A stretch of 64,000 nt of DNA, from assembly GCA_963824485.1 (NCBI GenBank), contig CAWGPH010000006.1, forward strand, positions 5,491 through 69,490. Reading direction: 5' to 3'. The stretch is from an uncultured Actinomycetes bacterium (lineage in GTDB: Bacteria; Actinomycetota; Thermoleophilia; Solirubrobacterales; 70-9). Positions 28,874 to 28,901 of the stretch are shown here, one piece after another (the first letter of the stretch is position 1; each line of letters starts with the position of its first letter). Below the pieces are notes generated by a model. That model worked only from the letters and a program-made list of their open reading frames with translations. It did not search any database and was not told where the DNA came from. The position numbers and the translations under genes are program-made.

Positions 28874-28901
28874 AGTTGACATAAGAAATGTTATCGGGCA
28901 T
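28874..28901. other. dif-like XerC/XerD recombination site (left junction of the prophage)
   Basis: AGTTGACATAA-GAAATG-TTATCGGGCAT. Its reverse complement, ATGCCCGATAA-CATTTC-TTATGTCAACT, has a XerD arm matching E. coli TTATGTTAAAT in 9/11 positions and, as I recall it, B. subtilis TTATGTAAACT in 10/11. Confidence 0.7.

Follow-up and report, generated by a model that had tools for sequence, protein, structure and literature searches.

We analysed a 64-kb window, the whole 64,000-nucleotide stretch presented above from contig CAWGPH010000006.1 of an uncultured soil bacterium of the Solirubrobacterales, in which a compact block of minus-strand genes with the content of a filamentous phage (inovirus) is bounded by two 28-bp sequences resembling dif, the site at which the recombinases XerC and XerD resolve chromosome dimers. 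Here, we describe this prophage, its junctions and its relatives, and consider it as a Xer-exploiting integrative mobile element (IMEX). On the plus strand, the left site (28874-28901) reads AGTTGACATAA-GAAATG-TTATCGGGCAT and the right site (36783-36810) reads GAGGACCGCAA-GAAATG-TTATCGTGCGT; both 28-mers had been pointed out in a first-pass annotation of the sequence and were recovered letter for letter. Read on the minus strand, the sites and the DNA between them are composed as follows.

28874-28901, minus strand: intact hybrid dif, predicted to work, reading ATGCCCGATAA-CATTTC-TTATGTCAACT; a 38.8-bit match to a position-weight matrix (PWM) of dif, with the XerD arm of 13 relatives
28891-28901, minus strand: XerC arm of the left site, ATGCCCGATAA, phage-derived
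28885-28890, minus strand: centre of the left site, CATTTC
28874-28884, minus strand: XerD arm of the left site, TTATGTCAACT, host-derived
28902-36782, all genes on the minus strand: inovirus prophage between the sites, 7,881 bp (7,909 bp when counted from the start of one site to the start of the other)
36783-36810, minus strand: crippled hybrid site; GC-rich degenerate arms lie at the same place in seven related phages
36800-36810, minus strand: XerC arm of the right site, ACGCACGATAA, host-derived, 11/11 identical to the single dif of 13 relatives
36794-36799, minus strand: centre of the right site, CATTTC
36783-36793, minus strand: degenerate 'XerD' arm of the right site, TTGCGGTCCTC, from the phage attachment site (attP)

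Common to the two sites is the 14-mer AAGAAATGTTATCG, which starts at 28883 and 36792 on the plus strand and has no further copy in the 64-kb window (DNA of about 69% GC) even when up to two mismatches are permitted. Dinucleotide shuffles of the sequence gave 0.04 matches on average, and two matches were not reached in any of 100 shuffles, in agreement with the first-pass view that a twofold occurrence of such an AT-rich 14-mer is unlikely by chance. The XerC-type arms of the two sites, TTATCGGGCAT and TTATCGTGCGT, are identical at 9 of 11 positions, whereas the left arms, AGTTGACATAA and GAGGACCGCAA, share just 5 of 11, the last two A's among them. A recount of the XerD-type arm TTATGTCAACT against the Escherichia coli XerD arm TTATGTTAAAT returned the 9/11 identities reported earlier. 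When the window was scanned with a PWM trained on 120 genomic dif sites, no position other than the left site scored above 8 bits, the right site included.

At least 120 reference genomes contain the pattern AGTTGACATAA-N6-TTATCG, once at each locus, and among the matches listed most are from Actinomycetota; the genera include Mycobacterium, Nocardia, Rhodococcus, Arthrobacter, Microbacterium and many Solirubrobacterales, and some other phyla are represented as well. The pattern is a close match to the dif that has been proposed in Frankia alni, CACGCCGATAA-TGCACA-TTATGTCAAGT (CACGCCGATAATGCACATTATGTCAAGT) (PMC3025954). Thirteen sequences syntenic with the window were found, 12 from Solirubrobacterales genomes and one a metagenomic contig (L001), with flanks that are 65-99% identical to the window at the nucleotide level. 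Each of them carries a single AGTTGACATAA-N6-TTATCGTGCGT directly past the genes for VKOR and a DsbA-like protein. Both 11-nt arms are invariant across the 13 sequences (22 of 22 positions), and the adjoining 60 nt on each side are only 20-43% identical, which makes the site a short, strongly constrained island. In two complete chromosomes, OY969702.1 (2.56 Mb) and OY970339.1 (2.72 Mb), the site lies near 624.5 kb and 906.3 kb, respectively. The host features that frame the two sites in the window are listed below.

27444-27941: VKOR gene, preceding the DsbA-like gene
27898-28785, plus strand: DsbA-like thioredoxin gene, host flank marker, the immediate neighbour of dif on the XerD side in every relative
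28806-28833: intrinsic terminator of the VKOR-DsbA pair, ending about 40 nt before dif
36878-37237, minus strand: orf119 (119 aa), host flank marker on the XerC side
37368-38045: methyltransferase gene, after orf119
38071-38925: short-chain dehydrogenase/reductase (SDR) gene, after the methyltransferase gene

The ancestral order is DsbA, dif, orf119, methyltransferase and SDR, and the order in the window is DsbA, XerD arm-centre-XerC', phage, XerD'-centre-XerC arm, and orf119 onward. The ancestral XerD arm is preserved at 11 of 11 positions in the left site and the ancestral XerC arm at 11 of 11 positions in the right site, which is exactly the pattern of hybrid arms that a crossover inside the 6-bp centre of dif yields. 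Homologues of orf119 (50-60% identical by tblastn) adjoin the single dif in five relatives, and orf119 is therefore host DNA; a further homologue adjoins the crippled site of a related prophage (L126). The 567 bp to the right of the right site, which contain orf119 and are absent from L001, were also considered as the remnant of an older IMEX, an idea ruled out by the homologues beside dif in those five relatives. The first-pass annotation had predicted an empty site with host arms around the hexamer GAAATG of the two sites, which reconstructs as ACGCACGATAACATTTCTTATGTCAACT. Its arms are found exactly, beside the same flanking genes, in L001 and the 12 reference genomes, but the predicted centre GAAATG did not hold, as these sequences have CCACCA, CCAAGA, CGAAGA and similar centres instead.

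The XerC side of dif is variable even without this phage. The spacing between dif and the methyltransferase gene ranges from ~45 bp to ~2.6 kb among relatives, and in L105, the closest of the reference genomes, this slot is filled by unrelated genes over at least 3.6 kb (one for a phosphoesterase, plus unknown open reading frames, ORFs); the inserted DNA is not phage-like and contains no second half-site. L001 and the window share 98.7% identity on the XerC side (37378-38980) but only 80.8% on the XerD side (28497-28777), a step that may reflect either a boundary of recombination mosaicism between strains at dif or a chimeric contig joined at the shared dif. In addition, a perfect hairpin with a stem of 18 bp and a loop of 3 nt (37257-37295; GTTCGCAGTTATCTCCGC tat GCGGAGATAACTGCGAAC) is situated between the stop of the methyltransferase gene and the start of orf119, in a region absent from L001, and no T-run follows it.

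Relatives of the prophage were recovered by a search with its morphogenesis ATPase (Zot) and its replication initiator (Rep). They are collinear with it, show 39-87% protein identity, and lie in contigs from metagenomes and genomes; the host flanks in these contigs share synteny with the window. The junctions of the prophages seen end to end are given below in the order XerC-centre-XerD, the crippled site being at the end with the gene for the single-stranded DNA-binding protein (SSB) and the intact dif at the Rep end.

Window: crippled ACGCACGATAA-CATTTC-TTGCGGTCCTC; intact ATGCCCGATAA-CATTTC-TTATGTCAACT
L125: crippled ACGCACGATAA-TCATGG-TTCTCGTCTCC; intact ACGCACGATAA-TCATGG-TTATGTCAACT
L126: crippled ACGCACGATAA-TCTTGG-TTCGCGTCCCC; intact ACGCACGATAA-TCTCGG-TTATGTCAACT
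L128: crippled ACGCACGATAA-TCTTGG-TTCGCGCCGCC; intact ACGCACGATAA-TCTTGG-TTATGTCAACT
L132: crippled ACGCACGATAA-TGGTGG-TTCACGCTATT; intact ACGCACGATAA-TGGTGG-TTATGTAAACC
L136/L137: crippled ACGCACGATAA-TGGAGG-TTCCCTGTTTT; intact ACGCACGATAA-TGGAGG-TTATGTCTACT
L138: crippled ACGCACGATAA-TGGTGG-TTCTCCGTTTT; intact ACGCACGATAA-TGGTGG-TTATGTCTACT

The combination of one functional and one crippled site, which had been noticed at first pass in the window, is repeated at the same locus in the six other end-to-end prophages, and its polarity is constant, with the crippled site always at the SSB end and the intact dif always at the Rep end. The XerD arms at the Rep end fit TTATGT(C/A)(A/T)AC(T/C) across the prophages. 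Two partial relatives (L127 and L133) occupy the same host slot and show the dif-proximal end only. An uninterrupted attP is present in L130 (ENA) and L131 (Logan), two contigs of one related phage that are circularly permuted with respect to the prophages: ACGCACGATAA-TCTTGG-TTCCTGGATTC lies there in continuous phage DNA between the Rep and SSB genes, and its source may be either a replicative circle or a tandem array. For the window phage, attP is a reconstruction only, ATGCCCGATAA-CATTTC-TTGCGGTCCTC (ATGCCCGATAACATTTCTTGCGGTCCTC). When viral contigs were scanned for CGATAACATTTCTT, the site with CATTTC as its centre, 119 chance matches turned up in AT-rich phages, none of them related.

Among all eight phages, the degenerate arms (TTGCGGTCCTC, TTCTCGTCTCC, TTCGCGTCCCC, TTCGCGCCGCC, TTCACGCTATT, TTCCCTGTTTT, TTCTCCGTTTT and TTCCTGGATTC) retain only the innermost TT of TTATGTCAACT, and seven of the eight lack the G at the fifth position, the arm base that matters most for XerD; the right site should therefore not hold XerD. 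The centres of the two junctions are identical in six of the seven end-to-end prophages (the window and five relatives). In the remaining one, L126, whose sites lie at 936-963 and 8046-8073, they differ by 1 nt, with TCTTGG at the crippled site and TCTCGG at the intact site, and this mismatch is a natural marker pointing to different parents, attP and dif, for the two centres. The phage centres take values found in host dif sites (TGGTGG, TGGAGG, TCATGG and TCTTGG), and phage and host centres co-vary. The sharing of centres by both junctions, together with their host-like values, argues that homology across the full centre is required. Two relatives whose Rep proteins are 39-47% identical (L134 and L135; IMG/VR uncultivated virus genomes, UViGs, 3300027773_000045 and 3300015192_000020) have no convincing dif-like site; they may use another integration target or a different dif, or may be incomplete.

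The prophage has a GC content of 66.4%, compared to 69.6% in the host flanks, and contains 12 compactly arranged gene calls between the sites, all on the minus strand. L123-L128, L130, L132, L136 and L138 are collinear with it. Its genes and ORFs include the following.

29028-29366, minus strand: p112, small Cys-containing protein adjoining attP (154 aa in the first ORF list)
29587-30648, minus strand: rolling-circle initiator with a Rep_trans fold (353-aa ORF; database form of 336 aa)
30882-31733, minus strand: Zot/pI-type morphogenesis ATPase (283-aa call in the database sequence L002; longer ORF to 31934)
31733-32140 and 32100-32480, minus strand: two overlapping HNH-endonuclease-like ORFs, accessory cargo (PHROG HNH matches at 1e-7 and 7e-6)
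32482-32778, minus strand: 98-aa membrane protein in the pVI-like position, after the 701-aa gene
32778-34883, minus strand: 701-aa protein in the pIII-like (adsorption) position, 39-50% conserved in relatives, with a function proposed from position only
34895-35134, minus strand: pVIII-like major coat protein of 79 aa, assigned by its layout, with a weak Phage_coatGP8 match (E 0.07)
35726-36346, minus strand: p206, conserved secreted or membrane-anchored phage protein, 52-71% identical in relatives
36362-36676, minus strand: p104, OB-fold single-stranded DNA-binding protein of 104 aa (gene V analogue; model with a predicted local distance difference test score, pLDDT, of 85)

The Zot/pI protein was recognised by profile matches to PF05707 (4e-16) and to phrog_1675, 'protein I of M13' (8e-24), and the 79-aa coat-like protein has a signal peptide, an acidic N-terminus, a hydrophobic helix and a basic C-terminus in that order. 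The 353-aa Rep had no match in Pfam, NCBIfam or PDB-sequence searches. Its AlphaFold model, built from an alignment of 55 sequences, has a pLDDT of 92, and the top Foldseek matches are chains A-D of 4cij, an initiator of rolling-circle replication (probability 1.0, E 8e-7); on this model, the protein is a replication initiator of the Rep_trans fold. RstA of CTXphi belongs to the Rep_trans-type initiator class. Homologues of Rep form at least 249 clusters, and those with names are from Solirubrobacterales. p104, the first gene past attP in the circular form, has its best structural matches among bacterial and mitochondrial SSBs (probability about 1.0, TM score about 0.5) and shares 85-87% identity with the corresponding proteins of L125 and L128. 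The two HNH-like ORFs have no counterpart in any collinear relative and are confined to the window phage. p112 has only seven homologues, in which C16, C19 and C52 are invariant, and is clade-specific; p112/p154 was considered as a universal Xer activator or regulator and ruled out on account of these few homologues and its absence from L130-type phages with the same attP.

No integrase, transposase or recombinase of the tyrosine, serine or DDE type was found in the prophage gene calls with Pfam, PHROGs and NCBIfam, no tyrosine- or serine-recombinase signature was detected by a motif scan of the whole window, and DUF3653 had no match in any gene call, with E values of at most 10 allowed for the larger ORFs and of at most 1 for the small ones. 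On these grounds, the element is, as judged from its sequence, a filamentous prophage lacking its own recombinase, and the early proposal that the intervening DNA is a mobile element devoid of an integrase is upheld by its inovirus genes and by the lack of recombinase motifs in the window. The genomic hallmarks of inoviruses (Zot/pI, a small genome, an initiator, an SSB, a pVIII-like coat and a single gene direction) are all present. Likewise, the hallmarks of an IMEX are found at this locus: exact insertion in dif, hybrid direct flanking sites, no integrase of its own, and a dif-like attP, the last seen in L130/L131. An 8,006-bp sequence (L002), which is 100% identical to window positions 28867-36872, was considered as the phage circle and rejected, as it corresponds to the integrated form. 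Its left end would be a branch point in a k=31 graph if an empty-site allele coexisted; its right end does not fit this explanation, which was not used.

It is very probable that the junctions arose from the recombination of a phage replicative form with the host dif through host XerC and XerD, and that the element is an IMEX. In the proposed mechanism, the double-stranded replicative form would recombine with the chromosomal dif, with host XerC and XerD as presumed catalysts by analogy with known IMEXs. attP would provide a good XerC arm, the same 6-bp centre as the target dif, and a GC-rich arm to which XerD does not bind. A crossover within the centre would join the host XerD arm to the phage XerC arm and thereby generate the left site, a complete dif that would still resolve chromosome dimers and is presumably the only dif of the chromosome, located at the terminus. 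The same crossover would join the degenerate phage arm to the host XerC arm, generating a dead right site, and without XerD binding at this site the prophage would be spared FtsK-driven deletion. A dead site that shields the element from FtsK-driven excision has been described in the literature on TLCphi of Vibrio cholerae and the gonococcal genetic island (GGI) of Neisseria. With regard to the exchange itself, we lean, with limited confidence, towards a pathway analogous to that of TLC and GGI elements, in which both strand pairs would be exchanged in a fully reversible manner that needs homology across the full centre; it would be helped by some activator other than XafT, the DUF3653 protein of TLCphi. 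This pathway is favoured over a XerC-only one because just one dif-like site lies near the phage ends, the XerD arm is non-canonical, and the whole centre matches in six of seven pairs.

The centre of the sites in the window is unusual. CATTTC (GAAATG on the plus strand) is unlike all the centres of related hosts, which are TGGTGG, TGGAGG, TGGTAG, TCATGG, TCTTGG and TCTTCG; on the plus strand, the dif centres among Solirubrobacterales are CCACCA, CTACCA, CCATGA, CGAAGA and CCAAGA. L001 also differs in its centre despite the 98.7% identity of its right flank. As each junction is left with the centre of one parent after a single Xer exchange, either the host dif already had CATTTC or earlier cycles of integration and excision converted it. 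The variable host centres, their match to those of the phages and the unique GAAATG of the window suggest either that the phage has converted dif or that the centre sequence is contested in an arms race. The XerC arm of the dif in the window is phage-derived, ATGCCCGATAA replacing ACGCACGATAA, and half of the predicted working dif of the source genome (the XerC arm and perhaps the centre) would now come from a phage.

Two copies of a 12-mer bracket attP in the circular form, about 190 nt apart, one of them in the loop of a conserved hairpin.

28998-29065, minus strand: conserved hairpin of ~20 bp with the 12-mer in its loop, on the phage side, 122 nt from the XerC arm
29024-29035, minus strand: 12-mer GTCCTTAAGACC, hairpin-loop copy
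36750-36761, minus strand: second, exact copy of the 12-mer, 21 nt past the degenerate arm

The window contains these two copies against 0.04 expected. Analysis of six phages (the window phage, L125, L126, L128, L130 and L132) with RNAalifold gave a hairpin of 20 pairs, seven of which show compensatory changes. All six have a 12-13-nt loop motif ~120 nt from the XerC arm and a second copy 17-42 nt past the degenerate arm; the copies are identical within a phage and represent five variants among the six phages (GTCCTTAAGACC, GTGCTTAAGACC, TGTGAAGGAGTCC, TGTGAGTGAATCC and GTCTAGGCAACC). Such a co-varying pair of motifs points to a site for a sequence-specific protein, which may be a replication origin or iteron, a packaging signal or an accessory site for recombination.

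Several other explanations were weighed against integration by XerC and XerD along a TLC/GGI-like route. An IMEX could also follow the pathway of CTX and VGJ phages, in which XerC alone swaps one strand pair and replication resolves the Holliday junction, with neither XerD catalysis nor an activator. The lack of a recognised activator gene and the excellent XerC arms at every attP agree with this FtsK-independent route, which CTX and VGJ phages take (PMC9226527), but we regard it as doubtful, if possible. A CTX-type event needs a hairpin attP of two sites in single-stranded DNA, and such an attP was rejected because a single dif-like site or CGATAA core occurs near the phage ends and in the 800-nt attP region of L130; a VGJ-type event would be expected to involve a canonical XerD arm, which is degenerate in all eight phages; and an exchange initiated by XerC needs homology only beside the XerC cut, whereas the whole 6-bp centre tracks that of the host in six of seven pairs. 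A more speculative and rather unlikely idea is a fourth kind of IMEX, in which Xer recombination would be activated at an attP that has no XerD arm, without XafT/DUF3653, the 12-mers being accessory sites for a phage protein, perhaps the Rep_trans initiator or some small protein not yet annotated. By analogy with the accessory sequences of plasmid cer and psi sites, this protein would assemble the synapse or replace XerD binding. A corollary would be the rewriting of dif: repeated integration and excision would rewrite the host site and drive the diversity of its centre as an arms race between phage and host. The left site of the window differs from the dif of all relatives in its XerC arm as well as in its entire centre.

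It is improbable to a high degree that the conserved 28-mer is a site for Xer-type or other proteins but not the dif of dimer resolution (a secondary site, for example), which would change the target of the phage. Signals of skew and strand bias are weak in the 56 kb of host sequence, which would be compatible with this; against it, the site occurs once per locus across many actinobacterial genera, matches the published prediction of an actinobacterial dif, is the sole PWM match in the window, and has genes converging on it. Still slightly less probable is that Xer is uninvolved and that dif is targeted by an enzyme of the phage itself, be it the Rep_trans initiator, an HNH nuclease or some recombinase that escaped recognition. 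Most phage ORFs belong to no recognisable family and the co-varying 12-mer pair around attP could be the site of a phage protein; however, an exchange within the 6-bp centre with whole 11-bp arms swapped is the geometry of Xer cleavage, attP imitates dif in its XerC arm and centre, the 353-aa protein has the fold of a replication initiator, relatives with identical integration have no HNH ORFs, and no recombinase motifs were found in the window. As for a chance repeat of two unrelated AT-rich 14-mers in GC-rich DNA, the shortness of the shared sequence is all that speaks for it, and the shuffles described above and the same architecture in six other end-to-end prophages leave this a negligible probability, the comparative data being already sufficient to refute it.

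Some observations weigh against integration at the terminal dif by host XerC and XerD. The 64-kb window contains neither the xerC nor the xerD gene of the host, and neither XafT/DUF3653 nor another activator was recognised among the gene calls. The centre CATTTC occurs in the dif of no relative, so the target before integration is a deduced one, and the circular form of the window phage with its own attP was not observed, L002 being the integrated form. Signals of the terminus are weak: ~74% of ORF length lies on the plus strand to the left of the site and 63% on the minus strand to the right, the GC skew changes from +0.010 left of it to -0.005 right of it, and a scan of 56 kb for polar 6-8-mers switching at the site did not discriminate. 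The signs of the strand bias and the skew fit converging replication forks, weakly so. The 8-mer GCGCTCGG, which resembles an FtsK-orienting sequence, occurs 11 times on the plus strand and once on the minus strand to the left of the site, and 3 and 12 times, respectively, to the right; this polarity was not significant in a breakpoint scan and is not site-specific in so short a window.

With XerC/XerD-mediated integration as the preferred explanation, the analysis may be useful in several respects. The dif of Solirubrobacterales, ACGCACGATAA-N6-TTATGTCAACT adjoining the VKOR-DsbA genes, provides an anchor for mapping the terminus and for Xer-based marker excision, and the VKOR-DsbA pair is a practical landmark for locating dif in this order. 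A large phage family (at least 249 Rep clusters) that would exploit Xer in the same way as known IMEXs is placed in Thermoleophilia, a little-studied and mostly uncultured class of actinobacteria. The matched series of attP and dif sites, with at least five centre variants and eight degenerate arms, offers data on the requirements for the XerD arm and the centre and on activators other than XafT.

Among known systems, TLCphi shares with the element described here an attP with a good XerC arm, the same centre as its target dif and a XerD arm that is not canonical, as well as the lack of an integrase, one working and one dead flanking site, and the rewriting of part of the host dif. TLCphi is, however, a gamma-proteobacterial satellite without morphogenesis genes and encodes XafT (a helix-turn-helix plus DUF3653 protein), whereas the element in the window is a full inovirus (Zot, coat, SSB and Rep) of Actinomycetota without DUF3653. 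The first-pass annotation had envisaged a TLC-like attP; the degenerate XerD arm is confirmed by L130/L131 and six prophages, but the TLC gene content is not, as there is no XafT/DUF3653 protein and the element is a full phage rather than a satellite. It is not filed as TLC-type because the defining XafT/DUF3653 protein is lacking. XafT-like proteins have been reported only in gamma- and beta-proteobacteria, and GGIs are also devoid of XafT. The GGI, a 57-kb type IV secretion island, has the same attP architecture but is not a phage and resides in another host phylum.

CTXphi and VGJphi of V. cholerae and the Cf/Lf-type phages of Xanthomonas resemble the window phage in being filamentous, in carrying a Rep_trans-type initiator (RstA), Zot and no integrase, and in integrating at dif by means of XerC and XerD. 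CTXphi differs in its folded single-stranded attP of two inverted sites and in its irreversible integration. In VGJphi, both the XerC and the XerD arm of attP are canonical and the centre is homologous on its XerC side only, unlike the degenerate XerD arm and fully identical centre found here, and the Xanthomonas phages carry DUF3653 proteins, which were not found here. Propionibacterium freudenreichii phage B5, an actinobacterial inovirus of 5.8 kb that is reported to be non-integrated, likewise infects a high-GC Gram-positive host.

Relatives also occur among the cryptic inoviruses of IMG/VR with non-canonical att sites (PMC6813254), in which L123 and L124 (UViG 3300012090_000058 and _000059) are catalogued as inovirus prophages in a form trimmed at a direct repeat. 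This repeat equals the XerC arm, the centre and the TT of dif, and the parent scaffolds (L125 and L128) have the intact XerD arm just outside the trimmed end. The main text of that study contains no mention of XerC, and the word-start matches to 'dif' in it are words such as 'different'. The relatives are already catalogued as inoviruses and their link to dif is apparently unreported; many of the IMG/VR inoviruses with a "non-canonical att" may be dif-integrating and open to re-annotation. In the literature searched, IMEXs are described almost exclusively in Proteobacteria, and no report of an IMEX in Actinobacteria was found in it, within its incomplete coverage. Judging from these sequences, the hijacking of dif known from the cholera-toxin phage group seems to operate in Actinomycetota as well, which is a well-supported extension of the host range of the IMEX mechanism rather than a new principle.

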